Of a stretch of DNA of 64,000 bases, positions 4,088 through 48,340 are shown in pieces. Where the stretch lies: positions 2,984-66,983 of the IMG/VR virus record IMGVR_UViG_3300046522_000252. One strand, 5' to 3'. Position 1 is the stretch's first letter; every line of letters starts with the position of its first letter. Made by a program: the position numbers and the translations under genes. This DNA is from a virus. The notes under the pieces are model-generated. The model did not search any database. It was given only the letters and a program-made list of their open reading frames with translations, and was not told the DNA's origin.

Positions 4088-4319
4088 AGTATATTTCAGT
4101 ATATCCTCCTAAACTAATGGAGACAGAGATGCTTACTCCTGGCGCCGGAATGAGCTATGTGATTAAGAAGTTACCGGGCGGCGGATCGCAGCCGAGCGTG
4201 GTGAAAACCTGCGAAGGAATGTCACGTGAGTTGGTTAAACGGCAGGGGAAATCCCACGTAGCCTGCCATCCCCGAAGGCGCGTTAGGGGACCAACTATGG
4301 TGCGCCCGGTAGCCACCTC

Positions 4320-5755: not shown

Positions 5756-5871
5756 GTGGCGGATTTCTCCCGGTTTTCCGGGGTTTGCGGGTTGCTTCTC
5801 AACCCATTATGACCTATATTTAGGACATAGACGGAAGGGCATAGGGCCCGCCGCGAACCGGGAGAGACCCG

Positions 5872-6114: not shown

Positions 6115-6125
6115 GGGCCGCCACG

Positions 6126-6368
6126 ATGACCAAGAAAACCCCTCACTCCGACGAACGCCACCTTGAAGCCCGCATGAACCGCCGCCTCGCCGCCGAAGAC
6201 CGCGCCCTGGCCCGGATCGAAAAACGGGAGGCCGCCGCAGAAGTCCAGATCGGCGAGCTGTGCCGCCAGGGCAAGCCGGTGTTCTACATCTGGCCGGTCG
6301 GCGGGAAGTACCGGGAGGGCACCCGCGCCGAGCTGATCGCCTTCCTGATCCGCAATAACTACGCCTGA
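6126..6368 (+). CDS. Hypothetical protein
   Basis: MTKKTPHS... with GAGG RBS. Confidence 0.6.
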   Translation: MTKKTPHSDERHLEARMNRRLAAEDRALARIEKREAAAEVQIGELCRQGKPVFYIWPVGGKYREGTRAELIAFLIRNNYA

Positions 6369-6413
6369 CCCACCGGCTGGGGATGAGCCCCGCCGCCAAC
6401 AAGGAGAAACGAC

Positions 6414-11253: not shown

Positions 11254-12078
11254 TCATACGCCGCACATCCCCTCACACTCATTGATGAAGAGGTTCAGTT
11301 GGCCGCGCTCCTCGGCAGTCGATAAATCAACCTCGTCAAGCGGCTTGAGCGATCTATGGATAAACACCTGGGAGCGTTTCACGCCGGGCATGTTGTCCCG
11401 AATAGCGTGGTCGACCGCGACGGCATCGGCGAACGAGGCGGCGTCATTGTCGCGAAGGTCGCGCCAACCGGCGTCGTTGCGATACGGGCAGAACGTACAG
11501 GCGGATTTTGCTGGCAGCGGGTAGTCGTGGGTTTCAAGCCACTTGAGGCAGTCCCGGCGCGTCATGCGCTTTTCGATCAGCGGCCAACGGTTCTCTATGT
11601 AGCGGTCGCGGGAGGGTTTCATGCGGGCGGCCTCGTCAAGGCTGATGCCTATCCACTGCTCAGCCGCGACCGTCTTTGGGCCGCGCTGGCCGGGCTCCAG
11701 GCCCAGCAACTCACGCATCTTCCTGCGGATTGGAGCGATCTTGAAATGCCGCGTGCATTGCCGATTGAGTGAACCAGGGGCGCCGTCATCGTTAACCGCG
11801 AAGAACGGCGGCCGACCATCGTTTCCGCTGACCCAGGCCGCGCGCCCCATAAGGACGTCGCGCAGGTTCCCGGCGGTGACAACATGCACCGGGAACGGCA
11901 GCACGTTTAAAGACATCATCCAAGCAAGGTGATCATAGACCGGCTGTGGCTCGGCGCCGGTGTCCGCGAAGATGGCGCAATCCGGCATGGGTCCGATTTC
12001 ACCATGCGCGGCCATGAGCGCCATTGTCGTCGACTGGACGCCAGCCCCCAAGGATATCACGCGCAGCTTGACGGTCAT
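11254..12078 (-). CDS. PAPS-reductase-like / adenine nucleotide alpha-hydrolase family protein
   Basis: ISLGAGVQST, FADTGAE, CT..FKI.PI, KSACTFCPY, ECEGMCGV. Confidence 0.75.
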   Translation of the reverse strand: MTVKLRVISLGAGVQSTTMALMAAHGEIGPMPDCAIFADTGAEPQPVYDHLAWMMSLNVLPFPVHVVTAGNLRDVLMGRAAWVSGNDGRPPFFAVNDDGAPGSLNRQCTRHFKIAPIRRKMRELLGLEPGQRGPKTVAAEQWIGISLDEAARMKPSRDRYIENRWPLIEKRMTRRDCLKWLETHDYPLPAKSACTFCPYRNDAGWRDLRDNDAASFADAVAVDHAIRDNMPGVKRSQVFIHRSLKPLDEVDLSTAEERGQLNLFINECEGMCGV

Positions 12079-12079
12079 C

Positions 12080-12373
12080 TCAATACCCCTTCGGAGGAGC
12101 AAAGAGGCAGAGCACGCGGCCACCGTCTTCACCTGCAACAGTGCAGAGATGAAACTTGCCGTCAGGGCTGTTTTTGACGCGCTTGTCCGTGAACGGAATC
12201 GTCTCGCTTTTGGTGACGTACCCGGCCGCCGTTTCCTTGAGGTCAGGCACCTCCCGGCAGTCCTGATCACTGCAACAGTTGAACGGATACGACCACCCGC
12301 TCGGGGCGTCATGCGCCATGGCGCCGGGGCTGAGAAGATGAAACGCGACTGCCGTGGCGACGAGCTTGATCAT
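12080..12373 (-). CDS. Small secreted cysteine-rich protein
   Basis: Signal peptide ending AMA, then HDAPSGWSYPFNCCSDQDC. Confidence 0.65.
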   Translation of the reverse strand: MIKLVATAVAFHLLSPGAMAHDAPSGWSYPFNCCSDQDCREVPDLKETAAGYVTKSETIPFTDKRVKNSPDGKFHLCTVAGEDGGRVLCLFAPPKGY

Positions 12374-27057: not shown

Positions 27058-27300
27058 ATGCAGGAAAAAACGGACTTGGCCACATTCCTCAAGGAGTGGC
27101 GAAAAGAACACGGATTGACACAGGCCGTCGCAGCCAAAGAACTTGGTATCGTGCTCCCGACCTATCGCGGGTTGGAGCAAGGCCGCCTCACCCCATATGC
27201 GCAAGTGGTTAGGATGGCGACCAAGGGTTGGGAAGCCGATGGCGGCCCCTTGCGCATGTTGCTTGAAGCAAGCGGGAGGGCCGATCATGGCCAAGCTTGA
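27058..27300 (+). CDS. XRE-family HTH protein
   Basis: LKEWRKEHGLTQAVAAKELGI..TYRGLEQG. Confidence 0.75.
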   Translation: MQEKTDLATFLKEWRKEHGLTQAVAAKELGIVLPTYRGLEQGRLTPYAQVVRMATKGWEADGGPLRMLLEASGRADHGQA

Positions 27301-28495
27301 GGGTTACAACAACGTCACTTCGTTTATCAAGAGCGGCAAAATGCGCTGGCGCTGGCGGGAAGAAGGCCGGGGCGGAAGGCAAGTCAATCTTCCGGGCAAG
27401 CCGGGCGAACCGGCGTTCGAAAAAGCCTACCGCGAATGCACGAAGGGTGAGACCCCCGAGCAAAAGGCGCGAGTCACCAGCATCTTCGATGCCAAGACCG
27501 TCAACGCCTGCTATCGCCGCCTGTTGCGCACCGCCGAATGGGACGAACTGGACCCACAGACGCAGGACAAGAACAACCGGATGCTGAAAGCCTTCATGAA
27601 GCTCACGGTCGCAGACGATATGGATGTGACATGGGCCGACATGCCGATGGCAGACATCAAGACCAAACATCTGCGCAAGCTGCTTGACGGCATCCGACTC
27701 AATGCTCCGACCGCCGCCAAACACATGCTGGTCGCCATCCGCAAGCTGACCAGGATTGCCATCGAGCAGGAGTGGATTGAGTATGATCCGACCTTCACCC
27801 TTGAAGCCCCGGTGCCGAAGACATTGGGCCATCGCAAGTGGCCGGACGAAATGATAGCCAAGTACCGCGAACGTCATGCGGTCGGTAGTGCCGCCCGGAC
27901 CTGCTTCGAACTGGCCATCTGGCTTGGCAACCGGCGCAGCGACATCGCCCGGCTGACATGGGGCAATCTCATCACCGAAGCGGTCGAGGTCGAGGGTGTC
28001 GACCGCGAAATGACCGCCTTTGCCTTCCGCCAGAAGAAAAATAGCAAGCGCACCGGCGGTAAGGAAATGTTCCTGCCGGTGCGCAAGCAACTGGCCGTGG
28101 CGCTGGAGCCGCTAGACCATGACAGCGAATACGTCCTGCTCACCGGGTACGGCAAGCCGTTCTCTGAAAAGAGCCTGACCGGCATGATGGCCCATTGGTG
28201 CAGGCAGGCGGGGATTCCGGTCAGCAATAAAAAGGAGGGCACGGTCGGCTACACCATCCACGGGCTGCGCAGGAATTTTGGCACCAAGCTCGCCCTCGAC
28301 GGCGCGACGGGTCCGCAAATCATGACCTCGATGGGCCATTCATCGGTTCGCGAAGCCGATCCGTACTTGCAGGAAGCGAATCGCAAGCGTCTCGTTTCCG
28401 ATGCCTTCCTCGAAGGCGAACGGCGCGATGCCGAACGGCTGGCAGCAAAACACCGGGCCGGTTTCAAGGTGGTGAATGGGACGGGCCCAACATGA
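27287..28495 (+). CDS. int: Tyrosine integrase
   Basis: GNRRSD (R), HGLR, MGH, Y catalytic set. Confidence 0.92.
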   Translation: MAKLEGYNNVTSFIKSGKMRWRWREEGRGGRQVNLPGKPGEPAFEKAYRECTKGETPEQKARVTSIFDAKTVNACYRRLLRTAEWDELDPQTQDKNNRMLKAFMKLTVADDMDVTWADMPMADIKTKHLRKLLDGIRLNAPTAAKHMLVAIRKLTRIAIEQEWIEYDPTFTLEAPVPKTLGHRKWPDEMIAKYRERHAVGSAARTCFELAIWLGNRRSDIARLTWGNLITEAVEVEGVDREMTAFAFRQKKNSKRTGGKEMFLPVRKQLAVALEPLDHDSEYVLLTGYGKPFSEKSLTGMMAHWCRQAGIPVSNKKEGTVGYTIHGLRRNFGTKLALDGATGPQIMTSMGHSSVREADPYLQEANRKRLVSDAFLEGERRDAERLAAKHRAGFKVVNGTGPT

Positions 28496-28666
28496 TGTTG
28501 GGCCCATGTTGGGCCAAAGCCGGATTATTCAATAAAATCAAATAGATTGGTAGGCCCGGAGGGCCCGCCATCCTCCCATGTTTTTATTGAGTTTTTGTTG
28601 GGCCTTTTTGGCCAATGTTCCCGCCCCGTTCCTGAATGGGCCCAACCGCAACAAACGGTTGGGCCC
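28482..28666. other. attP: tRNA 3'-end core at 28548-28563 flanked by arm-type repeats
   Basis: Reverse complement CCCTCCGGGCCTACCA; multiple GTTGGGCC(C)/GGGCCCAAC copies on both sides; directly after int. Confidence 0.7.
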
Positions 28667-28777
28667 TCTTCCCTGCCCCTCCAGTTCCGCCCACAACGCG
28701 CGATGTCGGGGCGCCGCGCGTAAGCGTACCGGCGGACACGAAACGCGCGTCAGCGGCCTCCTATGGCCACAAAACGC

Positions 28778-28812
28778 AAAAAGCCCCGCCGAGGCCGAAG
28801 CCAAGGCGGGGC
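28778..28812 (-). terminator. Intrinsic terminator at the end of the late/lysis operon
   Basis: gccccgcc...ggcggggc hairpin with A-tract on its left (U-tract on the minus strand). Confidence 0.65.
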
Positions 28813-28858
28813 AGTTTTACAACGCGGGCCCAGGAGAAACGGAAGCCCGCGAGGAAAT

Positions 28859-29185
28859 TCAAAGGCTGCTCGGCGGAATGGTGATACCGGCCCTTGCCAG
28901 TCTCTCTTCCAAGATTGAAATCTGGCGACGCATTCGGCGGATGAGCGCCTCTTGTTTATGGCTCAGCTTCTCGGCGTCATTGAGATCGCCGCGCTGCCGC
29001 TTGATGATGTCGCTTAGTTGGTTGCGCTCCTCCTGGAGCTGATCGGTCAACTCGCGAAAGCCGGTCGTGATCGAAGCGCCGATGTCGGCCCTCGTCCTGG
29101 AGCGGGCGACATAGATGGTGCCGATAACGGTGATGATCGCCGTCAAGACGGCCCCGCCAAAGGTGAGCAATGGCGCGAGGTCCAC
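28859..29185 (-). CDS. Single-TM coiled-coil protein (lysis region)
   Basis: N-terminal TM helix plus coiled coil. Confidence 0.65.
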   Translation of the reverse strand: MDLAPLLTFGGAVLTAIITVIGTIYVARSRTRADIGASITTGFRELTDQLQEERNQLSDIIKRQRGDLNDAEKLSHKQEALIRRMRRQISILEERLARAGITIPPSSL

Positions 29186-29188
29186 AGT

Positions 29189-29380
29189 TCATTCCTTGCT
29201 TTCCGATTTCACCGCCTGGACGAATTCCTTGTGGTCGACATGCATCTGCTGGATATGTGCTTCGAAGGCTTCGGCGATTTCCTTCTTGGCCTGCCGAATT
29301 GATATCCGATAAGTGGCCATGCCGCAGCCGATGGCCACGGCAACCGTGGCGGCGACGGTCACGTAAGCCTCGATATCCAT
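29189..29380 (-). CDS. Small single-TM protein
   Basis: MDIEAYVTVAATVAVAIGCGM... Confidence 0.6.
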   Translation of the reverse strand: MDIEAYVTVAATVAVAIGCGMATYRISIRQAKKEIAEAFEAHIQQMHVDHKEFVQAVKSESKE

Positions 29381-29381
29381 C

Positions 29382-29762
29382 TCACCCGGTCCTCCGCTCC
29401 CGGCGCCCGGCGGCATAGTCGGAGACAACCGCGATGGCGGTGACAACCGAGACGGCGGCCATGGCGGCACGCACAAGAATGTCGAGGCGATAGACGCCGG
29501 AGAACAATGTAATGACCGAGGTCAGGTGTGACAGGCCGCACAGAAAAATGAACGCCCCGAACAGTAGCCGCATGGTCGGCCTGACCCGCCCCGGCGGCAC
29601 CTGGCCGATAAACAGCAAGGCGAGGCCGATGGCGAAATAGGCGGCGAAGGTGGAAAGATCGGCGAGCACGTAAAGGAAGATCATCACCGGATCATTCGTC
29701 AGGCAAATCGAATGCTGGCTGTAGCGCTCGGCACCGAAGAAATTCAGGATATCAGTCCACAT
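29382..29762 (-). CDS. Stand-alone ethylene-receptor-like 3-TM domain
   Basis: ADLSTFAAYFAI...LFGAFIFLCGLSHL compared with ETR1 SDFFIAIAYFSI...QFGAFIVLCGATHL. Confidence 0.75.
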   Translation of the reverse strand: MWTDILNFFGAERYSQHSICLTNDPVMIFLYVLADLSTFAAYFAIGLALLFIGQVPPGRVRPTMRLLFGAFIFLCGLSHLTSVITLFSGVYRLDILVRAAMAAVSVVTAIAVVSDYAAGRRERRTG

Positions 29763-30216
29763 TGGCCGTCACCTCGAACGGGAACTGCGCCGTCACGTCC
29801 TGCTGGGATCGCGTCGGGCACGTGCTGTCGATCACCGAGCGATACAGCCACCGGCCCGGATAGACGTTTTCAGGAAGCTGCAAATAGACGGTGGCGTCGT
29901 CTGTCCTCTTGATCTCGGTCGACATGATCGGGCGGCTGAGCAGGACACTGACCGGCGGGCCACCGCCTTGCGAAATGAAGGTGGCAATCACCGTGCCGGG
30001 ACAAGAGGCGTTGCGCTTGGTCGATATGCGATAGGAGAGCGTGCCCTTGTAAGGCACCGTCGTCGAGATATTGCTCGGCCCCTCGGTCGTCTCGACCACC
30101 GGCCCATCGACTGAAAACATATGCAGGACGCCGTAGGAGATCGACCCGGCAATGAGCAGGACGCCCGCAACCTGGGAGAAGCCAAACCAGATCGAGGCGA
30201 TGATGGCGCGGGTCAT
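29752..30216 (-). CDS. Membrane-anchored periplasmic protein
   Basis: N-terminal TM helix, beta-rich C-terminal domain with two Cys. Confidence 0.6.
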   Translation of the reverse strand: MTRAIIASIWFGFSQVAGVLLIAGSISYGVLHMFSVDGPVVETTEGPSNISTTVPYKGTLSYRISTKRNASCPGTVIATFISQGGGPPVSVLLSRPIMSTEIKRTDDATVYLQLPENVYPGRWLYRSVIDSTCPTRSQQDVTAQFPFEVTANVD

Positions 30217-30431
30217 TTCCAGCATTTCTGCGCCCGCCCGAAAGCATTGTGCCCGGCGACGCCTTGGCCGGTCGGGTTAAGATCGGGATCGCTGGCGAGC
30301 TTAACGGCTGCGCCCGGTGCGACGGCGATCTTCTTCCACCCCGCGCAATTGGTCGCATTCTGGGTGTTGCACCCCGCCGCCGAGAAGCTCATTGCAAAGA
30401 GCAATGCCATCGAGGCCCATGATACGTTCAT
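30213..30431 (-). CDS. Putative o-spanin (Rz1-like lipoprotein)
   Basis: Lipobox-like SAAGC; overlaps the upstream TM gene after the endolysin. Confidence 0.65.
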   Translation of the reverse strand: MNVSWASMALLFAMSFSAAGCNTQNATNCAGWKKIAVAPGAAVKLASDPDLNPTGQGVAGHNAFGRAQKCWK

Positions 30432-30591
30432 CGATTTTCTCCCGCTTTTCGATTGCGGCGATAGTGTCTTTCAGTTGATCGGCCCGGCTATCCGCCCGGC
30501 CTTTCCAATAGCCGGAGCCAAACAGGGCGACGACGATCAACACTCCGCCGATCCATTTGCCGAGCGGCCCGGTCAGGAGCGCAATTATCAT
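30301..30591 (-). CDS. Putative i-spanin (Rz-like)
   Basis: N-terminal TM plus helical domain, overlapping the lipoprotein gene. Confidence 0.6.
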   Translation of the reverse strand: MIIALLTGPLGKWIGGVLIVVALFGSGYWKGRADSRADQLKDTIAAIEKREKIDERIMGLDGIALCNELLGGGVQHPECDQLRGVEEDRRRTGRSR

Positions 30592-31448
30592 ACCGGCACC
30601 TCGTCGAGCGCGTCAGCAATCCGTGCCTGCTGGCGGTTGGCGTACCAGCGATAGCCGATACCGCCCACGGCGAGCACGGCGCCGCCCACGGCCAAGCCGA
30701 CGACAAGATTGCCGATCCAGTCGCCCGCCGCGCTAAATGGCGTCAATTGCTCCTGCAAGCCCTGCAACGTGGCCGAGATGCCGCCCGCGCCGATGCCGCC
30801 GCCGGTCGCAGCATCGGCGGGTGCCTTGGACGGTGCTTTGCGCGCGTCCTCGATAGGTGCCTTAGCCTCGGAGCCCGGCACGGCGACGACCTCGACCACC
30901 TCGGCGTCCATCTTGCTATCGGCCATGGCCTGGCCGACCGCCCGGACGCCAGCGACGCGCGCCGTCCAGCCGCGCCCGAAATCCCGCCACGTATCCAGCG
31001 CCCGCAGATAGATCATGCGCCGGGCGCAAATCCGGTCGATCAGCGCATCAAGGTTTTCCGTCTCCTCAAGCGCGGCAAAGGTGGCAAGGCCGATCACGCC
31101 GTCAATGGTGCCGCGATAGGCCGCGCCGAGCGAGCGCTGTAGCCACTTGATCGATTGCTTCGGGCCGGAATGTACCGCGCCGTCGAACAGCACATAATCG
31201 ACGCCCTCGGGCAGCTTGTCGCCTTGCACTGCGTCCCAATACTGGTGGCGATAGATCGCGTCGCGTTCCGGTGCCACCAGTGAGCGGACATTCCGGGTGC
31301 GCAGTTTCTTGCCGCGCCGATAGGCGTCATAGGTCCGCTGGGTTATGCCCTGATTGGTCGCGCCGCCTTTGTCTCTCGGGTGGTCCGAAAAGCCGCCCTC
31401 ATGTACGAGCACTCGGGCGAGTGCCGCCTTGAAACTGCTGGCCACCAT
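30588..31448 (-). CDS. Endolysin, glycoside hydrolase family 108, with PG-binding domain and C-terminal TM segment
   Basis: HEGGFSDHPRDKGGATNQGIT...FDGAVHSG...FGRGWTAR. Confidence 0.9.
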   Translation of the reverse strand: MVASSFKAALARVLVHEGGFSDHPRDKGGATNQGITQRTYDAYRRGKKLRTRNVRSLVAPERDAIYRHQYWDAVQGDKLPEGVDYVLFDGAVHSGPKQSIKWLQRSLGAAYRGTIDGVIGLATFAALEETENLDALIDRICARRMIYLRALDTWRDFGRGWTARVAGVRAVGQAMADSKMDAEVVEVVAVPGSEAKAPIEDARKAPSKAPADAATGGGIGAGGISATLQGLQEQLTPFSAAGDWIGNLVVGLAVGGAVLAVGGIGYRWYANRQQARIADALDEVPV

Positions 31449-31463
31449 GACTGGCGCTCCTGA

Positions 31464-32402
31464 TTAATGATAGTTGACGTTCTGGACGCGGCGCGGGCGT
31501 CCGGTATCCGGCACGCCCTGAAGGATGTCGTAGCGGGAAAACTTCGTGACCGAGACCGTGCCGACAGCCATGAGCACGTCATAACGGGAAAGTTTCGTGG
31601 CGCTGATCGCCGCATCGTTCGACTGCATGACGTCGTATCGCGACAGCTTCGACGCCTGAAGGGCCGAGCCTGCCGAATATACGCTTTTGAAAGATGCCAC
31701 GATCATAACGTGGCGAGAATTTACGTTGGCCGTTGCCCGCAACTCTCCCGTCGCCGACGCCGCCGTCTTGGTCGCGTCTGCTACCGCGATAGATGTATCC
31801 GCACCTGTGACCGTGAAACTGTCGTGTCGCTCGGTCCAAACTTGTTCATTGCCGCTATCAAGCGTATCTGTAGCACCACTTCCGCTTGTTGGGTCAGTCA
31901 CCGCACGGAAGTCCGACACGGTCATGGCATCAGAGCCAGCGACCATCGCGACAAGTAGTTCTTCTTCCGTGGTGGTGGTTATTGTGCCCGTTGCGGCTGT
32001 AACAGAATTAGAGCCCGCAGTGGCCGAACTGTGCACGTTCAACGCGCCGGAGCTTTTTTGCCCCTTGTAGACCATGAGAACGCCGCGCGCGACGTCACCC
32101 GCTGTTCGGGTGAATACAAGGCTCGGCGCTGACGCTGGCCATGATTCACAAACCATCATCACGCCGGACGCAATAGATGTCGTCGGGTCGGTGTTTGTGT
32201 TTCCGCTAGTCTGCTGCTCGACTATCGACCAGCTAGCATCCGGCGCAGCGAACGCCGCGTTGCCGCGCGCAGCGATACACGCGATAACCAAATCACCCGT
32301 TTGGATCGTGACGCCGGTCGTGACGAGCGTCAGGTTTCCGCTGGCAACTTCGGCTGCGTTCGATACGCCGACAAACGTGAAAGGTGACGGATATGTCGCC
32401 AT
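31464..32402 (-). CDS. Putative tail fiber-associated/virion protein
   Basis: Thr/Ala/Ser-rich, beta-rich; C-terminal repeated SKLSRYD motif; in the tail block. Confidence 0.55.
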   Translation of the reverse strand: MATYPSPFTFVGVSNAAEVASGNLTLVTTGVTIQTGDLVIACIAARGNAAFAAPDASWSIVEQQTSGNTNTDPTTSIASGVMMVCESWPASAPSLVFTRTAGDVARGVLMVYKGQKSSGALNVHSSATAGSNSVTAATGTITTTTEEELLVAMVAGSDAMTVSDFRAVTDPTSGSGATDTLDSGNEQVWTERHDSFTVTGADTSIAVADATKTAASATGELRATANVNSRHVMIVASFKSVYSAGSALQASKLSRYDVMQSNDAAISATKLSRYDVLMAVGTVSVTKFSRYDILQGVPDTGRPRRVQNVNYH

Positions 32403-32403
32403 A

Positions 32404-33393
32404 CTAAGCCACCGACTTTGCGCCGTATTCAGCCGCGTTGATTTCGGCTATCGACCACGCCGCGCTTGTCGCCGGGTTTGTATTCATTACCGCTTGCCGG
32501 GTGCCATAGGCGGTATTGATGCCCGCGATGTTGCTTGTGGTGAAATCCGAACCGCTCTGCCGGACGACGCCCTGCATATTTTGCGGGCCGGTTGCGCCGC
32601 GCCTAGTGCGGGTCGAAAGAATGACCGCGCGCGGGACATAAGCCGCAAGATCGGTGTGCACGTCATCCATGACGTATGTTTCAAGTTGCGCCGCCGCGCC
32701 GGACTCGATGAAGGTGTTGTCGTTTCGATCTAGCTTCGTGACGTCGGCATAAGCCCCGGTCCACGCCGTGTTCGCGCCGTTAGCGGTTGCTTGACCTTGA
32801 TGGAATACCATTGACCGGGTGTCTTCGTCGGCAATGATGAGCGCGGAATAATTAAGTTCCCCGTTGCCAAGGCCGCTGGGGTTTGGGGTCATAAGCTCAA
32901 TCGTGTCGAGTGTTGTCGCGGCGGTAAAGATAGTGTCGCCTGTCATCTCATGAATAAGGGCATCATTCACATAGACGCGCACATAGCCCGCTGAATTATC
33001 CATTTTGAATTGGACGTCGACCTTAAAGCGGGCAGCGCTGAACGTGGTAGCTTCGCTGACTTCGACAAAAGCGCTACCGTTCCAGTATTCAAGGGCTTGC
33101 CCCGCGACGCCGTCGAATTCAATTTGGAACAACACTTGACCAGTTTCTCCACTTTTGAGGCGGAGCATTTTTTCGGCTGAACTGCCCCCGACGGAGGTAT
33201 TGAAATTAACATGGAATTGTATCCATCCTTCGGACATAGCGCTGGGAAACAGGAAACGCGCATAACTCGTATCGCCGGTAATGGTAATGCCCTCTTTGGC
33301 ATAAGGCGCGATTTTGGCCGCCGTCGTTATGGCTGCGGTTGTGCCGACTGTATAGAAATCGGCGCGGGATGTTGCTGCCGCAAGGATACTCAT
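32404..33393 (-). CDS. Putative tail/receptor-binding protein
   Basis: Beta-rich virion-like composition; position in the tail block. Confidence 0.55.
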   Translation of the reverse strand: MSILAAATSRADFYTVGTTAAITTAAKIAPYAKEGITITGDTSYARFLFPSAMSEGWIQFHVNFNTSVGGSSAEKMLRLKSGETGQVLFQIEFDGVAGQALEYWNGSAFVEVSEATTFSAARFKVDVQFKMDNSAGYVRVYVNDALIHEMTGDTIFTAATTLDTIELMTPNPSGLGNGELNYSALIIADEDTRSMVFHQGQATANGANTAWTGAYADVTKLDRNDNTFIESGAAAQLETYVMDDVHTDLAAYVPRAVILSTRTRRGATGPQNMQGVVRQSGSDFTTSNIAGINTAYGTRQAVMNTNPATSAAWSIAEINAAEYGAKSVA

Positions 33394-34211
33394 GTCAAAT
33401 CTCCGAGCATGGTAATGGATACATCGGCGAGGGTGGCGTCGGGCGAAGCGGGCGCGACGACGGTCAGGATATCGCCTGCGGTCATAGCCGTAGGTGATGC
33501 CATCGCCAGCGTCGCCGTGGTGCCCGCCGCCGACCATGTGGCCGACCCGACCGAGCTACCGTTTTTCTTGATCGATAGCGCCGGTGTGCCGGTCGCCGCC
33601 CCGCCGGATGATCCGCGTGAGCCGGTCATGCCTGCCGGGATGGTGAAATCTTCGGTCGCCTCATAGCGAAAGATGACCTCACTTGCATCGAGCGTGCCGC
33701 CCGCGAAAAACGAAAGGGCGATTTTCGTGATGCCCGGCACAGCCTCCCACGCGGCGTCTTTGCGGCCATAGATGGTCCCGTCACTCGGCGCATCGGCTAT
33801 CCCGGCATCAGGCACAGCCTCCCACGCAGCATCCTTCCGGCCATAGATTGTACCGTCACTAGGCGCATCGGCTATACCGGCTGTAAGCCCCACCCAATCG
33901 GTACCGTTGAATTGGACGTTTTCATTGGCGTCGGCGACATAGGCGGTAAAGCCCTCGGCGGGGACGATATAGACCCACGCGCCATTGTCGCGGATGGCGA
34001 TCTCGTTGGGATTACTCCCGGCGTCGGACGGGACAATGTAAATATCGCCGTCCGTCGGTGAACCAGGTAGCGCCGTCGTCCGGCTGATCACGCGCGGCTG
34101 GACGAGCGCGGACAGGAGCCGCAGGTTGATGTCATTGGCAGTATTCCAGCCGTTGTATCCCAGGTCCCAAAAGCCGGTGAGGCCAAGGCCGGGAAGTGTT
34201 CTTTCAGCCAT
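33390..34211 (-). CDS. DUF2793-domain tail fiber protein
   Basis: PGSPTDGDIYIVP...NEIA...W.YIVPAEG; duplicated IADAPSDGTIYGRKDAAWEAVP. Confidence 0.75.
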   Translation of the reverse strand: MAERTLPGLGLTGFWDLGYNGWNTANDINLRLLSALVQPRVISRTTALPGSPTDGDIYIVPSDAGSNPNEIAIRDNGAWVYIVPAEGFTAYVADANENVQFNGTDWVGLTAGIADAPSDGTIYGRKDAAWEAVPDAGIADAPSDGTIYGRKDAAWEAVPGITKIALSFFAGGTLDASEVIFRYEATEDFTIPAGMTGSRGSSGGAATGTPALSIKKNGSSVGSATWSAAGTTATLAMASPTAMTAGDILTVVAPASPDATLADVSITMLGDLT

Positions 34212-37200
34212 CAGCTTCCTCCATAATCCAAGCCGTAGCCGTAGCCGTAGCCGGTCGTCACAACGACTTGAATTTGATGCGCTTGCAGAGAAATCAGCCC
34301 GTCGCGCTTTGAGCTAACCCGGATATAACCGCCCGTCTCTCCGGCAAACGATGCGACCGGCACGTCATAGCTGGTGCCCGGCAAATCATCGTGGGTGGTC
34401 AGCACGGCTTCGGCGAGGTCGAGGACTTCAATCCGGGTCGTCTGATCGTCCTCCGGCGTTACGTCCGCCGAGTTCCAGGCCAGGATGACCGCGTCTTCAG
34501 TGAGCCGGTTGCGGTTGGCCCATGTGACCGGGATCGGGTCAACGCCATCACAATCAACCACGCCGCTAAAACCGTCGTCGCCGTTGACTTTCACGTCGGC
34601 GGGGCGGAGCGGCAAATGCGGGCGCGCCGTGAGGGTCTCGGTGACAGTGGGTGCGGCACCGAAGGCCAGCAGACCGAGCGACGTGCGTGTCAGCACTTTA
34701 TATTCGACGACTTCGGCTTCCGATCTCACGGTGTCGTCGCTGTTTTCCAGATTGCCGTCGAGGAACCATACCGGCGTCCCGGACGGCCAGGCGCGCGGCA
34801 CGGTATCGAGCACGCCGCGCTTGACCGTATAGCCGAGACTGTCGGCCGCCGTGATCTCGCACAACTCAACATCGGTTTCGTCGGTGCCCTCAATCAGGAT
34901 CAAACCGCCAAGCACGGGCGCGTTGCCTTGCGTCCGGTCGGGGAAGGTCGGCAGCTCGGTTTCGATCTCAGCATCGATCCCGGCGGCCAGCTCGGCGCGG
35001 CTAACAATGGTCTTGGTGCCAAGGTCGCTGCCGCCGGAATTGTAAAGCTCGAATTCCGCCGTGTCCTGGCCGCCCTCGGCCGCGAGCACCCCGGCGAAGA
35101 CCTCGGGGTATTCGACGCCCAGCGCCAGCACGGTAGGATCGACTTCGTTTACGACCATGTAGTACGGGAGGGTGAAAACGAGGGTATCGTCGGCGGGCGA
35201 CGGCTCCTCCGATACCGGCACCCATTCGGTGTCAGGCGGAATATCGTAGTCGGCCAGCGGCAGCGAGAAGATATCCTCGACGAGTTGGACTTTTACCGTG
35301 GGGTCGCCGGGCTTGCCGTAGTCGACCGGGCCCACGCGCATGACGATACTGTCTATGCCGTCCTCCGGTGAATTGAGAACGATCACGTCACCGGGCAATA
35401 GATTCCATGCTTCGCGGTTGACCTCCATATCGCCGGATGCAAGCGGGGTGGAAGCGGCGCGCAGATCGCGCTGGGCGAGCTTCATGGCCAAGCCACGGAC
35501 CCGCACGCCGTAGTAATTCCGGCCATCCGATACAATGCCGCCTTGCGCTTCGATGTTGGCGTTGTCCTGCGCAATGACGGTTTGTTCTTCCTCGTTCCTC
35601 GGATTGGTCCACGTCACGACGATTTCGTTGATCGTCTCGCCCCATAGCTTGCGCCCGAATTTGGTGACGACGGAATTGTCCGGCGTGAATACCGGCAAGT
35701 CATCGACCTCATAATCATCGCGGATCAGCTTGAGGGTCAGCAGGCCGTCCATCGGATTGACGAATAGCACCGCCTCGATGTGGTCGAGCACTTCGCTGAT
35801 GAAACTTTCGATGGTCGATTGTTTCGTCCAGATCATCGACAGGCCGAAATCCTCGTCATAGAGCACCGCCGCCGCGCTTTCGAAACTGGCGATATTGATT
35901 GCCGTGCCCGGCGCGCCCATGCCCCAGTCGGTGTTGGTCAGGCAGTCGTAAATGATATGCGACGGGTTGCTGTCGAATTCACCCGGCAAGAGCAACACAT
36001 GCGCGCCGGTCGTGCCCGGCGAAACCGAATCGAAGATGACGAAGGCCCGCTCCTGTTCGGAAAAGGCGGCCTCACCCTGCCATGAGTCTTCGATCTCCCA
36101 TTCGGTCAGGTAGAGGCGTTGTGATTCATTGCCGGATGAAACGTCGTAAAACCAGACGGATTGCGTGTCGACGTTGCCGGTATACTGGAAAAACGCGGCG
36201 GTGCCCGGCCCGTCGAGCAGTCGGCGCGATTGAACCGCATAGCGGGGCGACAAGCCACCCCAATCGCCGGTTTCGTCCGACGAGACGACGGCGGTCAGAT
36301 CGGAATTCAGCGCGGCGAAATGACCGTTGGGGCCAACAAAAATCCACTGATCGGTGCCCTCGTCATAGGTCACGCTATTCAGTGGGTCCGACGATGTGAC
36401 GGCCCATCCGAGCAGCCCGGCGAAATCAACCGCGACGGCATCCGTGCCAAGGGCGGTAGGCGTCCAGCTAACCCGATAGACTGCACCCGACGCGAATTTG
36501 ATCGTTAGATATGTCGGCCCGGCGGCAATCACTATCGACGACGTGCCAAGGACGCCCCAATCCCAGCCGGTCCAAAGATACTCCCAGCCGCCGCCGTCAT
36601 TGGACATGCAAACGATCTGATACCAGAGCGAGAAAAACAGATACGTCGTGCCGCCGACTACAAATTCGGTCGGCGATCCACTCAAGGCCAAATAGCTGTC
36701 GTCGCCACCGCCTAGCCTCGGGTCGCCCCAACCTGATACGCTCCCTTTGAATGTGCCGTGCAGCAGATCATAGGTGTGCAAAACGCCGAGGTTATCGGCG
36801 ACGAGCAACTCGCTTTGCGACGGCGAAATGTAGAGCCAGAACGGCGTATAGGAGATCGGGATTGTCGCCCGCACATCGCCCGTGCGCAAATCCTCGATGA
36901 TGATCTCAGAGAAGTCCTCGGAGAAATGCGCGATGGTCGAATTATAAGCATCAAACAGCTTCCAGCCGCCGGTGTTCGCCGGATCGAGGCCGACGTCTTC
37001 AACGTCGCGGGACTCGCGCAATTTGCCGGAGCGATAGATGCGGGCATAGTCCTCACCCAAGTGCGTCGAGGCGCGCGCCGCCTTGATCCAGACTCCCGGC
37101 AGGTATGGCGAATTGGCGGACCAGTAGAAACCCTCCTGACCCTGGCCGTCGTGGAAGAAGGCGGTGGCAATGCCGCGATAGGCGGGCATGGTCGCCGTCG

Positions 37201-40387: not shown

Positions 40388-43300
40388 TCACCCTTGCATG
40401 GCCGCCCGGAAGGCGGCGGGCTGTGATTTGATTGCGTTGAGGATGACCTTGGCGCCCGCTGGCTGGGCCATCGCTTCCGATAGGAACGAGGCGGCGTCAA
40501 AGCGGTTGATGACGGTCGTTCGCGCATCGACGTTCGGCGTGGCGGACTGCGCTTGCGGCCTGACGGCGATGCCGTTGATCCGAGGCAGCACAAAGCCGCC
40601 CTGCGCATAACCGCGCTTAGCTGCCGCGTGCATGGCGTCGAGGTGGCGGCGGCCGATCCGGCTTGTCGCCTTTTTCGAGAAGACATATTCCCCGCCGTGG
40701 ACGGTGCCCTTCGGCTCATTCGTGCCGCCGTCTCCGGTATAGCCGCCACCAGCGAAGCCGAGCCCGCTAAACAGCGCACCAAACAAGCCGCCTCCGGCCC
40801 CGGCGCCGGTCGTCGACGGAGTGAACAGGGATTTGAAAATCTGATCGAGGGCAATATCGAGCAGCCGGTCGGCAAGCTGAGACACGGCATTGTAGAGCGC
40901 TTCCGTCGCCGTCTTGCCATGCACCATGTCGGAAATGAACGACTTCATCGCGCCCTGGAAGGCGTAAGACGTGTCCTGCTGGAGCTGCTGGAGGTCTTCC
41001 TGCTTTTGCTTCAGCCGTTCGGCGGCCTGTTCGGCGGCATCATAGGCCGCCACCGTGCTATAGCGCGCGTTGGCTTCCGCCTCGATGGCGGCGCGCATTT
41101 CGTCAGTGACTGTGATGCCCGCCTTCTGCAATTCGAGGATTTTTTCGCGGACAATTCGCTCGCGCTCGCGCTGTGCATTCGTTGCGCCCAGCATCGTAGT
41201 TTCGGCGGCAATGGCTGCTGTTTCCTCACGGATGGAGGCGAGCACATCGTCATAGACCTTTTTCTGTTCGCGTTTCAGGGTGATGTCCTCGCGGACGCCT
41301 TCCGGCGCCCCGGACAGAAATTGCTCGGCCTCGCTGTTGCGGCGGGTGCGATTGACGCCACTGTTGTCGCTGCCAAGGCCGCGAATGGCGTTGTAAACGT
41401 CCTCGGTCGTGCCTTCCTTGACCGCTTTGATAATCCGATCCGGTAGCGAGCCGTAATTGTAGGCGATGCTGGTCAACACCGCCTGTTGATCAGCATTGAA
41501 TGAGGCAAATCGTTCCGCGCCGATGTCTCTCTTTACCCCCGGCATGAATTCCGTTTCGATACGGTGTTCCAGGTTGCTGGTAGCATTCGCAAGCGTGGTC
41601 GATATGCCTTCGGTGACTTTCTGAATGCTGCCGTCGTCAAGCGTAACGGTGCCCGATCCGAAGCCGACGCGATAGCCGCTGTTGACCCGCTCACCATTGC
41701 GCATTGTCCAATCTTTATAGGCGTTCGGCCTGAATTTCTCATAGCCCGCGATCAGATCGAATGCCTTCTTGGTGCTGGCCGACCGCGTTTCCGCCGTCTC
41801 GCGATTTTCCAACTGCCGCCGCGCCGATGCTGCGGCCTCGGCTTCGGTGATCGCCTTGCCCGCTTCCTTGGCGTCTTTCATGATCTTTTCAGTAAGCTCG
41901 GCGAGTTCCTTTTCTTTCGCCGTGCGCAATTCCAGCAGTTCGCGCTCGGTCAGGTATGCGGAGGCGGAACGCCTGCGCGTCTCCTCCTGCGCGCCCTCGC
42001 GCATAAAGCCGGGAGGCGTGTTTGCGCCCGGCATAGTAAAGCCCGCCGCCTTCGTCTGGAATTCGTCCATGGCGGTGATTGCCTTGGCGAACATATCCAG
42101 CACCGGCTGGAAAGCGCTGGCGATGGCCTGGAATTGGTAGTTCTCGCTCGCCAGCCTTTGCAGCGCCGCCTTGGCCTCGTCGGCGCCGGTTGTGCCCTCG
42201 GCCAATCCGTCCCGCAGGTCTTCAAGTTGCTGCAACTGTTCTGGCGAAACGGTCTTGCGATCTATCGAGCGCAGGGCGTGATCGAACAGCGCAACAACCT
42301 CGTCGCGCGCCTTTTTGACGGCGGCGCGGTAGCGGTCCAATTCGGCTGTATCCCCCAGCGCGGTAGAGGCGATTTGCGTAGCGCGAAATGTCTTGATGGT
42401 TTCGGCAAGCTCCTTATTCAGTTTAAGGACCGGCTCGCTGATTTCCGTTTTCGCCATTTCCTCAAGCGTGGCGAGCGCCGCTTCTGCCGATATATTGCTG
42501 TCGCGGAAGCCGTCAGCAAGATTGGCAATGGTCTCGCGCGCCGCCTTGTCGATATCCGATGTCGAAAATATGCCGACAAGGCCGCGCATTCCCTGCCGCG
42601 CCTTTTCGGCAATGGAGCCGAGTTCGTCCCCAAGGCTCCCGCCAGTGCCGCCGCCGCGCAAGCGTTCCAGTTCATCATTAAATTCTTTCAGTTGCCGCGC
42701 CTTGGCACCCTTAGAAAGTTTGTCGACGGACGCGGCAGCCTCGTCGACACCATCCGCCGCCTTCGGGGCAAGGAGGCCCATTTTTTCCAATTCGGCGTTA
42801 ACGCGCGCGGCTTGGGCGGCGGCCTTGTCCGCTTGCTGCTGGAAGGTGATCAGGGCTGCGGTTACAGCAAGCGCACCGAGGCCCGCCAATGCCCCAAGCG
42901 GCCCGGCGGCGGCGCCAAGGCTCGCCAACGCGCCGCCGGTGGACGCGGCGGCTATTTGCACCCCGCGCATCGCCCGGACAAAGTTATTCAGCGCGCCGAT
43001 CCCCAAGCCAATATTCTTGAGCATTATCCCAATCGAGCGACCAAGAAGCCCGGCAGCAAGGATGCTGGCGAAAGCAATGGCGATATCAGCGGTCGCGTCG
43101 AAATTATTTGCCAGCGCTTCCAGCCCGGCAATCAACCGCCGCGATGCGCCGAGGCTTTCGTCGGTCTGGCCGATGTATTTGGTGAAGGCGTTTTCGATCT
43201 TCTGGAACGCCTGCCCGAATGTCGTCGATGCCTGCGCTGCCTGCGATGCGAGCCCCTTCGATCCTTTCAAAAATCCCTCGAAAAAGGCTTTCGAGGTCAG

Positions 43301-43957
43301 TTCACCTGCAAGGACCATCTTGCGCAGCTTCGAGATGGAGCCGCCCGTCGAGTCAATACCAGCAGCGACCGCTTGCAGGATTGGCCGGGCGCCCTCCATG
43401 ATCGAATTGAATTCTTCCGCCCGGACGATGTCGCCACCGAGCGCTTGGCTCAATTGCAGCAACGCGCCGCTGGCCGACGCAGCGTCGGTCCCGGCGACCT
43501 TCAGGGCATCGCCGACGCCTTTGGTGAATTGAAAAAGCTGCTCCTGATTGGCGCCAAGCTCGTTTGCGGATTGGGAAAGGCGGGAAAACAGGGTGACTGT
43601 CGCGCCGAGATCGGCGCCCGCGCCCTGCGCGATATCGAACAGCCGGTCAAGCGTGCCCGCGAGCTGGTCCGCCGGAACGCCAGAGACTTTGAGGGCGTTA
43701 CCAGCCTGTTTCCAGGCATCGGCATATTTGATGACCTCCGCAACGCTGAACGCCGCCGCCACACCCGCCAACGGTGCAGCCAGGCCGCGCCCGAACCCGC
43801 TGCCGATGTTGTTGAGGCTCTGGTTCATCGTCTTGGCGCGTCGCTCGATGGCGGTAAATTCGCGGTTCGTCACGCCGCGTGCGCGGCCTATCGCCCGCTC
43901 ATAGGTCTTCACGTCCGCGCTAAGCTGGACGACCAGGCGCTCAAGATCGGTTGCCAT
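40388..43957 (-). CDS. Tape measure protein with internal lysozyme-like domain
   Basis: LLQLSQALGGDIVRAEEFNSI tape-measure motif; LIAGYEKF..AY.D..GFG..AYNYG..RRNSEAEQF. Confidence 0.9.
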   Translation of the reverse strand: MATDLERLVVQLSADVKTYERAIGRARGVTNREFTAIERRAKTMNQSLNNIGSGFGRGLAAPLAGVAAAFSVAEVIKYADAWKQAGNALKVSGVPADQLAGTLDRLFDIAQGAGADLGATVTLFSRLSQSANELGANQEQLFQFTKGVGDALKVAGTDAASASGALLQLSQALGGDIVRAEEFNSIMEGARPILQAVAAGIDSTGGSISKLRKMVLAGELTSKAFFEGFLKGSKGLASQAAQASTTFGQAFQKIENAFTKYIGQTDESLGASRRLIAGLEALANNFDATADIAIAFASILAAGLLGRSIGIMLKNIGLGIGALNNFVRAMRGVQIAAASTGGALASLGAAAGPLGALAGLGALAVTAALITFQQQADKAAAQAARVNAELEKMGLLAPKAADGVDEAAASVDKLSKGAKARQLKEFNDELERLRGGGTGGSLGDELGSIAEKARQGMRGLVGIFSTSDIDKAARETIANLADGFRDSNISAEAALATLEEMAKTEISEPVLKLNKELAETIKTFRATQIASTALGDTAELDRYRAAVKKARDEVVALFDHALRSIDRKTVSPEQLQQLEDLRDGLAEGTTGADEAKAALQRLASENYQFQAIASAFQPVLDMFAKAITAMDEFQTKAAGFTMPGANTPPGFMREGAQEETRRRSASAYLTERELLELRTAKEKELAELTEKIMKDAKEAGKAITEAEAAASARRQLENRETAETRSASTKKAFDLIAGYEKFRPNAYKDWTMRNGERVNSGYRVGFGSGTVTLDDGSIQKVTEGISTTLANATSNLEHRIETEFMPGVKRDIGAERFASFNADQQAVLTSIAYNYGSLPDRIIKAVKEGTTEDVYNAIRGLGSDNSGVNRTRRNSEAEQFLSGAPEGVREDITLKREQKKVYDDVLASIREETAAIAAETTMLGATNAQRERERIVREKILELQKAGITVTDEMRAAIEAEANARYSTVAAYDAAEQAAERLKQKQEDLQQLQQDTSYAFQGAMKSFISDMVHGKTATEALYNAVSQLADRLLDIALDQIFKSLFTPSTTGAGAGGGLFGALFSGLGFAGGGYTGDGGTNEPKGTVHGGEYVFSKKATSRIGRRHLDAMHAAAKRGYAQGGFVLPRINGIAVRPQAQSATPNVDARTTVINRFDAASFLSEAMAQPAGAKVILNAIKSQPAAFRAAMQG

Positions 43958-47035: not shown

Positions 47036-47223
47036 TCGATGATCTCCGACAGGACGTCGAGCGAAATGCCGTCGTCGAGGATCAGCACCGGCACGCCCGG
47101 CGCAAAACCCGCCATGGTGGCTTTGATGCGCTCACACGCTTCCATCGAAATGCGCCCGGCAACGCGCAGAACCAGCCGGTCGCCCGGCCTGAATTCAATG
47201 CGCCGGATATCTTCGATGTTCAT
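47032..47223 (-). CDS. Small hypothetical protein
   Basis: ATGA-coupled ORF MNIEDIRR... Confidence 0.55.
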   Translation of the reverse strand: MNIEDIRRIEFRPGDRLVLRVAGRISMEACERIKATMAGFAPGVPVLILDDGISLDVLSEIIE

Positions 47224-47741
47224 GCAATCCACCATGCCTTTCTTCCCGCCGTATCCGGGGCGCGCCCGATCCCGGCGGCGAAGTCGTTGATGGCTCCGGC
47301 CGCCAGCCAATCACGGCCCTCAAACCAATCGTCGCAACAGACAATCCCGCCCGGAATCATCCGGCCCCATATCCATTGCAGTGCAGCAAGGGTCGGGCCG
47401 TATTGATCCATATCCAGGTGCGCGAAGCCGAACCCGGACTCGGTGATCGCCGGAAGAATGTCCGGCACAAACCCTTTCAACAGCCGCGCTTGGGGCGCCG
47501 CCCGTTGCGCGTCACGCATCGGCGCGGATAGGCGGCCCAGCGGATAGGGCGTCCATCCATCCTTGGTGTCCCGCCGCCCCGGTGCGGCCATCCCGGCAAA
47601 GCTGTCGACGCCTATCGTGAGGCCGGGATGCTTTGCGATTAGGCGCAATGTGGCGCCGCGAAAGACGCCAAATTCGATCCGTGGGCCAATGGGGCATTTC
47701 CCCAGCAATCCGACGAAGGCCGCGTGCTCTTGCGGCGTCAT
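47220..47741 (-). CDS. TylF/MycF-like sugar O-methyltransferase
   Basis: EFGVFRG, DSFAG, FAHLDMDQY, PGGIVCCDDW. Confidence 0.8.
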   Translation of the reverse strand: MTPQEHAAFVGLLGKCPIGPRIEFGVFRGATLRLIAKHPGLTIGVDSFAGMAAPGRRDTKDGWTPYPLGRLSAPMRDAQRAAPQARLLKGFVPDILPAITESGFGFAHLDMDQYGPTLAALQWIWGRMIPGGIVCCDDWFEGRDWLAAGAINDFAAGIGRAPDTAGRKAWWIA

Positions 47742-48340
47742 CACCAGCCCACGTCCCATGGACGGGGTTTACCGTGAAACACCACTACGGACGTTCCGGC
47801 CGGGGCTTTGCCGGTGCGCCGGACATCGGCCTTGAACGAACACAACTGACCGGGGCAAACGTCCTGCCACAACCGCCAACCGGCGCCCCTGCCGTGCGCC
47901 TCAAGGAACGCCTGGTCGCCGCCCCGCGCGAATTCCCTCATGTGTTTTGCGGGCGATGCCGTGAAGGCGTTCCAGATGGGCGCCTTCATCGCCTGTGGGA
48001 TGGCCATGACGCTGCTTTGCCAGCCGGAGGGCCGGTATACGTCTCGCATGATCATCGGCGCCCTGACCGCCTCCAGGACCGCAAGACTGCCGATAATTGC
48101 ACTATCCAAATCAAAATAGAGCCAGTCGACGGCGAGCACCGGGTTGAATAGCTCCATCTTCGCCCACCAGCCCGGCCAGCTATATTGAAGCGGGATGATG
48201 TTGACGCCGGGCACGGCTAGATCAGTCAGGCACCAAAACCCGGCGCCGGGCAGATGCTTGGCCACCTGATCGCGCAGGCGGGTCACATGCGCTGGCTTGT
48301 ATTCGCCGCCGGATCGCAGGACGCAGGCCACCGCTTTCAT
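47741..48340 (-). CDS. GT-A fold glycosyltransferase
   Basis: CLTD, WWAKMELF, YFDLD, GDQAFL, VVFHGKPRPW. Confidence 0.8.
   Translation of the reverse strand: MKAVACVLRSGGEYKPAHVTRLRDQVAKHLPGAGFWCLTDLAVPGVNIIPLQYSWPGWWAKMELFNPVLAVDWLYFDLDSAIIGSLAVLEAVRAPMIMRDVYRPSGWQSSVMAIPQAMKAPIWNAFTASPAKHMREFARGGDQAFLEAHGRGAGWRLWQDVCPGQLCSFKADVRRTGKAPAGTSVVVFHGKPRPWDVGW

Follow-up and report, generated by a model that had tools for sequence, protein, structure and literature searches.

Why would a phage carry, among its lysis genes, a membrane domain that in plants, cyanobacteria, and Azospirillum serves as the input module of receptors? The question is raised by a 64,000-nucleotide (nt) stretch of viral DNA (the window), which comprises bases 2984-66983 of the IMG/VR virus record IMGVR_UViG_3300046522_000252, a record of 66,983 bases rated 100% complete. 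On the minus strand, at 29382..29762, the window encodes a protein of 126 amino acids (aa) with three transmembrane (TM) helices, which an earlier note, made from the sequence, had described as a stand-alone, ethylene-receptor-like membrane domain in a lysis cassette. Our analysis places this protein in a largely phage-borne family that lacks output domains and is wired into lysis operons, and its role is most likely that of a late-expressed membrane protein that controls lysis.

The open reading frame (ORF), a Kyte-Doolittle hydropathy scan, and an AlphaFold2 model all agree with the size and the three TM helices that had been proposed. The scan shows hydrophobic segments at residues 32-50, 66-84, and 95-113, and the model, which was built with 40 homologues (predicted local distance difference test score, pLDDT, 80.9; predicted template modelling score, pTM, 0.68), places long helices at residues 25-52, 62-88, and 91-125, preceded by two short N-terminal ones. 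Both motifs on which the earlier note had relied can be read from the translation: the first hydrophobic helix has D35 and Y42 with six residues between them, and residues 68-80, in the second hydrophobic segment, read FGAFIFLCGLSHL. The protein, called here the ethylene-binding domain (EBD) protein, also has an H17/C20/D24 motif at the N-terminus, I45 in helix 1, and I72, C75, and H79 in helix 2. The proposed membership of the ETR1 type was borne out by Pfam, where family PF25487 (ETR1_N, 'Ethylene receptor 1-like, N-terminal domain') matches residues 27-113 over profile positions 2-88 of 97 with an E-value of 2.4e-18 and a score of 66.6 bits, where the curated cut-off is 27; a search within the virus record's own genome gave the same match. 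This likeness is far above chance and, judged by its sequence, the protein is a genuine member of the family. As the ORF ends 13 residues beyond the third hydrophobic segment, there is no room for an output domain, just as the earlier note had maintained, and neither the ORF nor Pfam and PHROG scans of its neighbours revealed a GAF, kinase, GGDEF, or other such signalling domain fused to the EBD or adjoining it. The C-terminal tail is basic (RRERR), and from the charge distribution we infer an orientation with the N-terminus out and the C-terminus in. A Shine-Dalgarno-like GAGG can be read about 9 nt 5′ of the start codon.

For a structural comparison with ETR1, no relevant solved chain was matched by sequence or fold. 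Solved PDB chains searched by sequence gave one irrelevant match (E 0.086), Foldseek with the model found nothing in the PDB at E 0.001 or better, and a wide fold search returned generic helical bundles only (best Z 8.9). The best Foldseek match in BFVD was an unnamed viral protein of 289 aa (TMq 0.75, E 2.4e-3); BFVD entries labelled 'Holin' appeared at E 1.5-2.0 and were rejected as not significant. A phage record collection held neither a DNA nor a protein match.

A word-indexed protein search, in contrast, yielded 98 proteins at E 0.001 or better out of 236 candidates. They measure 75-162 aa (median 125), nearly all consist of PF25487 alone, and their named sources are Rhizobium ruizarguesonis, Mesorhizobium, Chelatococcus reniformis, Methylobacterium oryzisoli, and Methylorubrum extorquens. 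We counted residue conservation over these 98 homologues and the window protein (n = 99). F71, I72, and C75 are present in 99/99 and H79 in 98/99, so the Cys/His pair, whose conservation the earlier note had singled out for checking, is retained throughout nearly the whole set. H17 and C20 follow with 95/99 each, Y42 with 94/99 (2 Phe, 3 gaps), G46 with 91/99 (Gly), I45 with 90/99, and D35 with 87/99 (4 Asn, 3 Glu, 3 His, 2 gaps). An alignment of 18 sequences extends the comparison to cellular receptors; it contains the window protein, nine phage or prophage forms, a 525-aa Azospirillum ORF, a 412-aa Rhizobium kinase, and six other fused sensors, and C20, Y42, I45, F71, I72, C75, G76, H79, Y91, and S105 are invariant in all 18. 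The 525-aa ORF lies on a plasmid of Azospirillum brasilense Sp7 (L096; loci are cited by our own numbers), and both its length and its strain are those given for AzoEtr1. It shares 29% identity with the window EBD in the alignment and 29.8% over residues 1-94 by tblastn. The AzoEtr1 paper reports that residues 1-130 of that receptor bind 14C-ethylene and that seven residues are needed for ethylene binding (PMC11819568). C75 and H79 align with Cys65 and His69 of ETR1, and D35 with Asp25, a residue that modulates the binding of Cu and ethylene; in PMC10266040 the first two are the Cu(I) ligands and Asp25 supports high-affinity ethylene binding. In cyanobacterial EBDs a single N-terminal Cys replaces the disulfide pair of the plant proteins, according to PMC6682694. 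C20 fits this single N-terminal Cys of bacterial EBDs. The remaining ethylene-binding residues are Tyr32, Ile35, Pro36, and Ile62. Y42, I45, and I72 are present at the corresponding sites of the window protein, and the Pro position is occupied by G46. Finally, pairwise ratios of nonsynonymous to synonymous substitution (dN/dS) among the window gene and four close phage copies were 0.08-0.10, rough values given a dS above 1, and 0.25 for the closest pair; by this measure the gene is under purifying selection.

When 1.84 billion representatives were searched with the profile by HMMER, 8029 clusters matched at E 0.001 or below, 5318 of them at 1e-10 or below; the best 25 clusters are all of 166 aa or less, and long proteins dominate thereafter. 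We also searched DNA directly, confirming 240 of 250 pattern matches in a genome collection and 348 of 543 in a metagenome collection, and kept the best 80 of each. Among the loci retained in our searches, those at least 43% identical to the window EBD (L115-L127, L002-L008, L016-L019) are all short ORFs, from 87 (open-ended) to 169 aa, or 202 aa for L017 if it is counted from an upstream start, and those of lower identity are mostly ORFs of 370-1286 aa. A few short cellular EBD ORFs adjoin kinase or GGDEF genes (L043, L059, L062, L176, L189, L190) and are, on the evidence of their sequence surroundings, split or frameshifted sensors. Some of them resemble the phage protein in being short EBD-only ORFs (L059, L062, L176, L189, L190), but each is followed immediately by a HisKA/HATPase or HWE kinase gene, and in the tree they cluster with the fused sensors, whereas the phage form has no signalling gene nearby. 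In one gammaproteobacterial genome (L036) a gene for the copper chaperone SCO1/SenC (5385-5990) lies directly upstream of a short EBD ORF (5902-6399) and overlaps it, with a GGDEF-EAL response regulator nearby, an arrangement that hints at dedicated copper delivery for EBDs.

In a quick maximum-likelihood tree of 79 rows and 135 columns, for which we chose the rows ourselves (44 of the 80 genome loci, 17 viral loci, 15 of the 98 proteins, two plasmid ORFs, and the window), the clade of the window comprises 22 rows, all stand-alone proteins, with a Shimodaira-Hasegawa-like approximate likelihood ratio test (SH-aLRT) value of 90, and three Chelatococcus rows stand beside it. L010, L013, and L014 form a second phage clade (SH-aLRT 99), the branches of L009 and L112 are long, and L012 and L103 are placed with fused sensors. 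On this tree, which is low in resolution and has no known root, bare EBDs seem to belong to more than one lineage of phages. The comparison with the ETR1-type EBDs of Arabidopsis ETR1, Synechocystis SynEtr1, and AzoEtr1 can now be drawn. The phage protein belongs to the same Pfam family, has three TM helices with Asp/Tyr in helix 1 and Cys/His in helix 2, and carries the single N-terminal Cys of bacterial EBDs. Unlike them, it has no output domain, is encoded in a lysis operon, has Gly46 in place of the cellular Pro, belongs to a separate clade that holds no fused proteins, and in part of the phage clade the Asp is relaxed. Two contigs classed as viral carry fused EBDs, an EBD-STAS protein of 352 aa (L015, 5884-6942) and an EBD-HWE kinase of 371 aa on a 279-kb contig (L104, 4974-6089); they may be host DNA or cargo of large phages.

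The genomic setting bears on function. In the window the EBD gene belongs to a minus-strand series that runs, in this order, from the endolysin through a spanin pair, p157, the EBD gene, p64, and p108 to a terminator-like site. The endolysin (30588..31448) combines GH108 and PG_binding_3 domains (Pfam E 1.2e-26 and 2.6e-7; phrog_315, E 1.7e-51). The i-spanin candidate (30301..30591, 96 aa) has an N-terminal TM helix and a helical periplasmic part and matches phrog_12535 (E 1.9e-12) and the Rz-like spanins of phrog_8821 (E 4.4e-5). Overlapping it in another frame, the o-spanin candidate (30213..30431, 72 aa) matches phrog_37499 (E 3.8e-6) and shows, by inspection, a lipobox-like AAGC; its end in turn overlaps the start of p157 (29752..30225). 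From the endolysin through p108 (28859..29185), genes overlap by 4, 13, or 11 nt or are separated by 1-3 nt. The p157 stop overlaps the EBD start by 11 nt, and the ATG of p64 (29189..29380) lies one base past the EBD stop. These overlaps and short gaps make the EBD gene a translationally coupled member of the lysis operon. The earlier note had placed it between the spanins and two TM/coiled-coil genes, which is right for the two downstream genes, each with one TM segment and a helical tail; directly upstream, however, is the 157-codon gene p157 and not the spanins. The late/lysis operon ends at a terminator-like stem-loop with a T-rich tail (28782..28802), which follows the p108 stop at a distance of 57 nt. 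Consensus scans, which in total found no more sites than in shuffled sequence and are weak evidence, showed no terminator-like site between the endolysin and p108 and no promoter-like site upstream of p157 or the EBD gene. The lysis operon continues the late module that runs from terminase to tail.

Is this setting peculiar to one phage? Two scans of a viral collection gave 19 distinct contigs besides the window, and a recognised endolysin lies near the EBD gene in 9 of these 20 viral loci: a GH108 enzyme in the window, L002-L005, and L009, a PF11860 muramidase in L006, a GH19 enzyme in L007, and a PF18013 enzyme in L008. We then counted features by a uniform tblastn over a pool of 23 loci of the window's clade, here clade A (the window, L002-L008, L016-L019, L115-L119, and L121-L126), omitting L120, whose contig is that of L006, and L127, which is the second copy that the L126 contig carries. 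A p157-like gene lies directly upstream of the EBD gene in 17/23 (in L018 and L019 as fragments only), and a p108-like gene lies downstream in 19/23. Recognised endolysins occur in 11/23 and belong to four families (GH108, PF11860, GH19, PF18013), spanin-like genes in 8/23, p64-like genes likewise in 8/23 (the window and seven of the 22 related loci, all among the closest), and a convergent integrase downstream in 5/23. The gene order varies: the endolysin precedes the EBD gene in the window and L007 and follows it in L008. The location in a lysis cassette that had been claimed for the window thus recurs in related phages, and it also recurs in unrelated ones, for L009, a separate lineage found in a phage of 38% G + C, has a GH108 endolysin two genes from its EBD gene. 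Two loci contribute recognised holins. In a Chelatococcus reniformis prophage (L017) the order is muramidase (PF11860 + PG_binding_1), lipoprotein, Phage_holin_10 (PF23987, E 2.3e-11), p157, EBD, and p108, and in L125 the stop of a LydA-type holin gene (PF16083, E 9.3e-13) overlaps the likely EBD start. L019 (5727-6273), also from Chelatococcus reniformis, has fragments of Phage_holin_10 and p157 and a truncated EBD of 93 aa and is a decayed copy of the L017 cassette among ordinary metabolic genes. The adjacency of these genes is also found in cultured strains under the NCBI locus tags ELH77_19485, 19490, and 19500 in Rhizobium ruizarguesonis and EOA88_00400 and 00405 in Mesorhizobium. In the second phage clade (clade B; L010, L011, L013, L014) the EBD gene follows tail genes like those of gene transfer agents and is itself followed by conserved multi-TM proteins and a TM/coiled-coil protein; no recognised endolysin was present within the DNA stretches examined at these four loci.

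Since the EBD gene shares an operon with endolysin and spanins, is linked to p157 and p108 across four endolysin and two holin families, and is under purifying selection, we consider it probable that its product is part of the lysis machinery. As to what it does there, our tentative preference is for a protein that regulates how holes form, be it an antiholin-like factor or a co-holin, and we rank second the possibility that it is the holin itself. We do so because the EBD gene comes just after a known holin gene where one is present (L017, L125), and because the metal-ligand residues are invariant and a plain hole-former would not need them. Moreover, the cellular relatives are sensors, either fused or split beside kinases, so that reading a signal is the ancestral role of the domain, which again favours a regulator. 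In the mechanism that we infer, phages would have taken a bare EBD into the lysis cassette, where it would be made late together with endolysin and spanins. It would insert into the inner membrane with its N-terminus out and its C-terminus in, C75 and H79 would load Cu(I), and it would dimerise, probably via the periplasmic C20, as has been proposed for cyanobacterial EBDs. From within the membrane, and together with p157 and p108, it would regulate hole formation, and the timing of permeabilisation would be set by the state of the metal/ligand site, be it through ethylene, another small ligand, copper supply, or redox.

Known antiholins and lysis regulators offer a partial precedent. In P1 the antiholin gene lydB comes right after the holin gene lydA, RI of T4 acts on the holin T, so that a sensor-like input sets the timing of lysis, and lambda makes S107. 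Like these, the EBD protein is a small membrane protein encoded beside or just after a holin (L125, L017) and co-transcribed with lysis genes; unlike them, it has no sequence relation to P1 LydB, T4 RI, or lambda S107, and we know of no antiholin with input from a metal or gas site.

Several observations weigh against a role in lysis control. Recognised lysis genes occur in only 13/23 clade A loci (the 11 with an endolysin plus the holin-only L019 and L125), many of those without them being short contigs, and L122 and L124 have no recognisable lysis gene. The clade A loci are related phages and not independent, and L116, whose scores are identical to those of L003, is probably the same phage. 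The surroundings of L126 are moron-like, with genes for an Acb2/Tad1-hairpin protein and an outer-membrane beta-barrel upstream (3771-5378). No RNA run was found to contain this stretch. Within the protein, the Asp position is Y in L007, N in L008, G in L006, and H in L010, L013, and L014, and position 46 is Gly or Ser in the clade of the window and Pro in cellular EBDs. High-affinity ethylene binding may therefore not be general among the phage homologues, and what the phage EBDs have in common may be copper or redox state and not a high affinity for ethylene. Lastly, the earlier note had failed to recognise a holin, and neither did Pfam and PHROGs assign any small TM ORF of the window to a known holin family. 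In consequence, a regulator would need p157, p64, p108, or a distant 68-aa ORF with two TM segments to serve as the holin.

This absence lends weight to the idea that the EBD protein is itself a holin or pinholin, which would accumulate in the inner membrane and form a hole or an ion-conducting lesion, so freeing or activating a membrane-tethered endolysin, with the copper site structural or gating. Among ORFs of at most 260 aa in the window, leaving aside any antisense to a large gene, the EBD ORF alone has at least three predicted TM segments. Lambda S105 and other class I holins have about 100-130 aa, three TM helices, and a charged C-terminal tail. The EBD protein shares this layout, with its size, its three helices, its RRERR tail, and its place in a lysis cassette, but it matches no described holin family in Pfam or PHROGs v4, shows no dual-start motif, and is strongly conserved with a cellular sensor domain. 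Its fold may conduct ions, for plant EBD receptors (OsERS1/2, ETR1/ERS1) are reported to carry cation currents that are enhanced by ethylene and need the N-terminal cysteines, not Cys65 (PMC13261662; bioRxiv 10.1101/2025.10.20.683334). The plant proteins belong to the same family, and the N-terminal Cys that OsERS1 activity needs corresponds to C20 here; these reports, however, concern full-length eukaryotic receptors in oocytes, and the preprint leaves channel activity in bacterial homologues to future tests. A further point in favour is that the endolysins of the window, L007, and L008 have a hydrophobic segment of their own and may need no more than depolarisation. On the other hand, L017 and L125 already have a Pfam-recognised holin directly upstream, the invariance of the Cu ligands across lineages would be superfluous for a plain hole-former, and the 68-aa ORF is an alternative candidate. 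This ORF (C1:91-297, minus strand, L195) lies outside the window, about 31 kb from the cassette, and is adjoined by a 47-aa ORF with one predicted TM segment (C1:294-437, minus strand); both belong to the 3 kb of the record beyond the window, where an HNH endonuclease gene lies upstream of them, and neither has a PHROG match, and from its predicted segments the 68-aa product is a possible small holin-like protein. On balance we regard it as somewhat unlikely that the EBD protein is the hole-former. Another candidate holin, a 56-aa ORF at 58681-58851, was rejected, as its match to phrog_1296 ('holin') has an E-value of 0.02 and is not significant.

Two further explanations leave lysis aside. 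The EBD gene could be a moron, with a product that in the lysogen binds ethylene or copper, or pairs with the EBD kinases of the host as a decoy, and so alters its response to plant ethylene. Cargo genes often sit where this one does, in the last part of the late operon and beside the integrase; L126 has accessory-type neighbours, the rhizosphere or root habitat and the rhizobial names among its relatives fit, and such hosts do have EBD kinases, for example the 412-aa EBD histidine kinase on a Rhizobium plasmid (L097). Yet the 11- and 13-nt overlaps and the gaps of 1-3 nt leave no room for a promoter of its own, no promoter-like site was seen upstream of p157 or the EBD gene and no terminator before them, the module travels with four endolysin and two holin families, and in L008, L009, and L017 the EBD gene lies between lysis genes and not at the operon end. 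With 34% identity to the EBD of the Rhizobium kinase, it is also not a recent copy suited to heterodimerise, and we consider lysogenic conversion without a part in lysis unlikely. The same operon structure argues against a prophage exclusion or abortive-infection module in which p157, EBD, p64, and p108 would respond to superinfection as lambda RexB does, by depolarising the cell. Conservation as a set of small membrane proteins without a known family, the possible channel capacity of the EBD fold, and the defence/anti-defence genes near the EBD region of L126 would suit such a module, but its tight linkage to endolysins and holins would be unexpected, and we judge it very improbable.

If the EBD protein controls hole formation, it would be a concrete and testable case of a small-molecule or metal input into the timing of lysis, and plant signalling, copper, or redox would be linked to the behaviour of rhizosphere prophages. 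The boldest version, which we rate as rather unlikely, is that root-zone phages time lysis by a Cu(I)-loaded, kinase-less EBD that gates the holin or is itself the channel. Were it true, plant ethylene, copper, or redox status would decide when a lysogen bursts, no holin or antiholin before it would have been ligand-gated, and the ethylene receptor fold would be in use by a virus for the first time. Our search of the library available to us found no paper linking the ethylene-binding domain to phages or holins, PHROGs v4 has no family for the protein, and reviews of non-plant receptors (Carlew et al.; Papon and Binder) may mention EBD-only proteins; the family is known, and its bare, phage-borne, lysis-linked form appears to be undescribed. 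At 126 aa the protein is a natural minimal domain, attractive for a structure of the ethylene-binding site, which to our knowledge is still unsolved, and for a test of the claimed channel activity. Cultured carriers make genetics feasible, namely the Chelatococcus reniformis prophage with its full cassette (L017) and the Rhizobium ruizarguesonis strain.

The suggestion that the host is associated with plants can be upheld as plausible. When words were sampled from 28500-34500, at least half of them occurred in each of two sequencing runs. One is a rhizosphere metagenome, which may be where this DNA came from, and the other, of a different study, is a root metagenome; these runs and the rhizobial relatives of the EBD protein support a plant-associated setting.

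Among the partner genes, p157 encodes a protein whose model (AlphaFold2, pLDDT 90) consists of a long N-terminal TM helix and an eight-stranded beta-sandwich of about 115 aa. Its invariant residues include SCPG and a second Cys-Pro motif. It has no family in Pfam or PHROG, its fold matches are generic Ig-like ones (best Z 9.1), and its Atlas clusters are 73-82% viral; an Atlas lead to LydB (score 0.86) was below trust level and was set aside. The invariant Cys-Pro motifs, taken with the SCO1/SenC gene beside a cellular EBD in L036, give rise to the idea, by analogy, that p157 might be a periplasmic Cu chaperone. The p64 product (63 aa) has one N-terminal hydrophobic segment and a hydrophilic, helix-like tail in the hydropathy scan, and neither Pfam nor PHROG gave a family for it. 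The operon closes with p108, which encodes 108 aa with one N-terminal TM segment and a tail that resembles a coiled coil; this protein matches phrog_2658 ('hol-like chemotaxis', E 1.4e-9) and has 33 homologues. Its counterpart in L008 weakly matches an Rz-like spanin PHROG (1e-4), and p108 has no detectable homology to the TM/coiled-coil proteins adjoining the EBD genes of clade B and L012. The EBDs of L009, L012, L112, and L113 have a C-terminal coiled-coil-like tail of their own. The hydrophobic segments of the endolysins beside the EBD module lie at residues 248-266 of 286 in the window, at about 354-372 of 430 in L007 (GH19, 3993-5285), and at about 229-247 of 455 in L008 (PF18013, 4766-6133), and from their sequences these enzymes, of three catalytic families, look membrane-tethered.

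As for the rest of the genome, its gene content indicates that the window is a complete temperate siphovirus. The PHROG scan located the terminase (55201-56895), the major head protein (53200-55176), and the tape measure (40388-43957) on the minus strand, along with the portal, tail tube, tail proteins, and fibres. A RecT-type recombination module and other early genes are on the plus strand, as is a tyrosine integrase (27290..28495; phrog_1 integrase, E 1.6e-23), which is convergent with the lysis operon; the attachment site attP presumably lies between the two. PAPS-reductase-like (3′-phosphoadenosine 5′-phosphosulfate reductase-like) genes on the minus strand at 11254-12312 and 61063-62295 (phrog_424, phrog_2302), both near ParB-like or DNA-methyltransferase-like genes, may constitute a DNA-modification module. 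Elsewhere, the contig of L126 holds its EBD region twice (L126 and L127), and the Acb2/Tad1-hairpin protein encoded there is of the anti-defence sponge type. Finally, methyltransferase-, glycosyltransferase-, and sialyltransferase-like genes within the head-tail module of the window (47220-48963, minus strand) hint at glycosylation of the virion.

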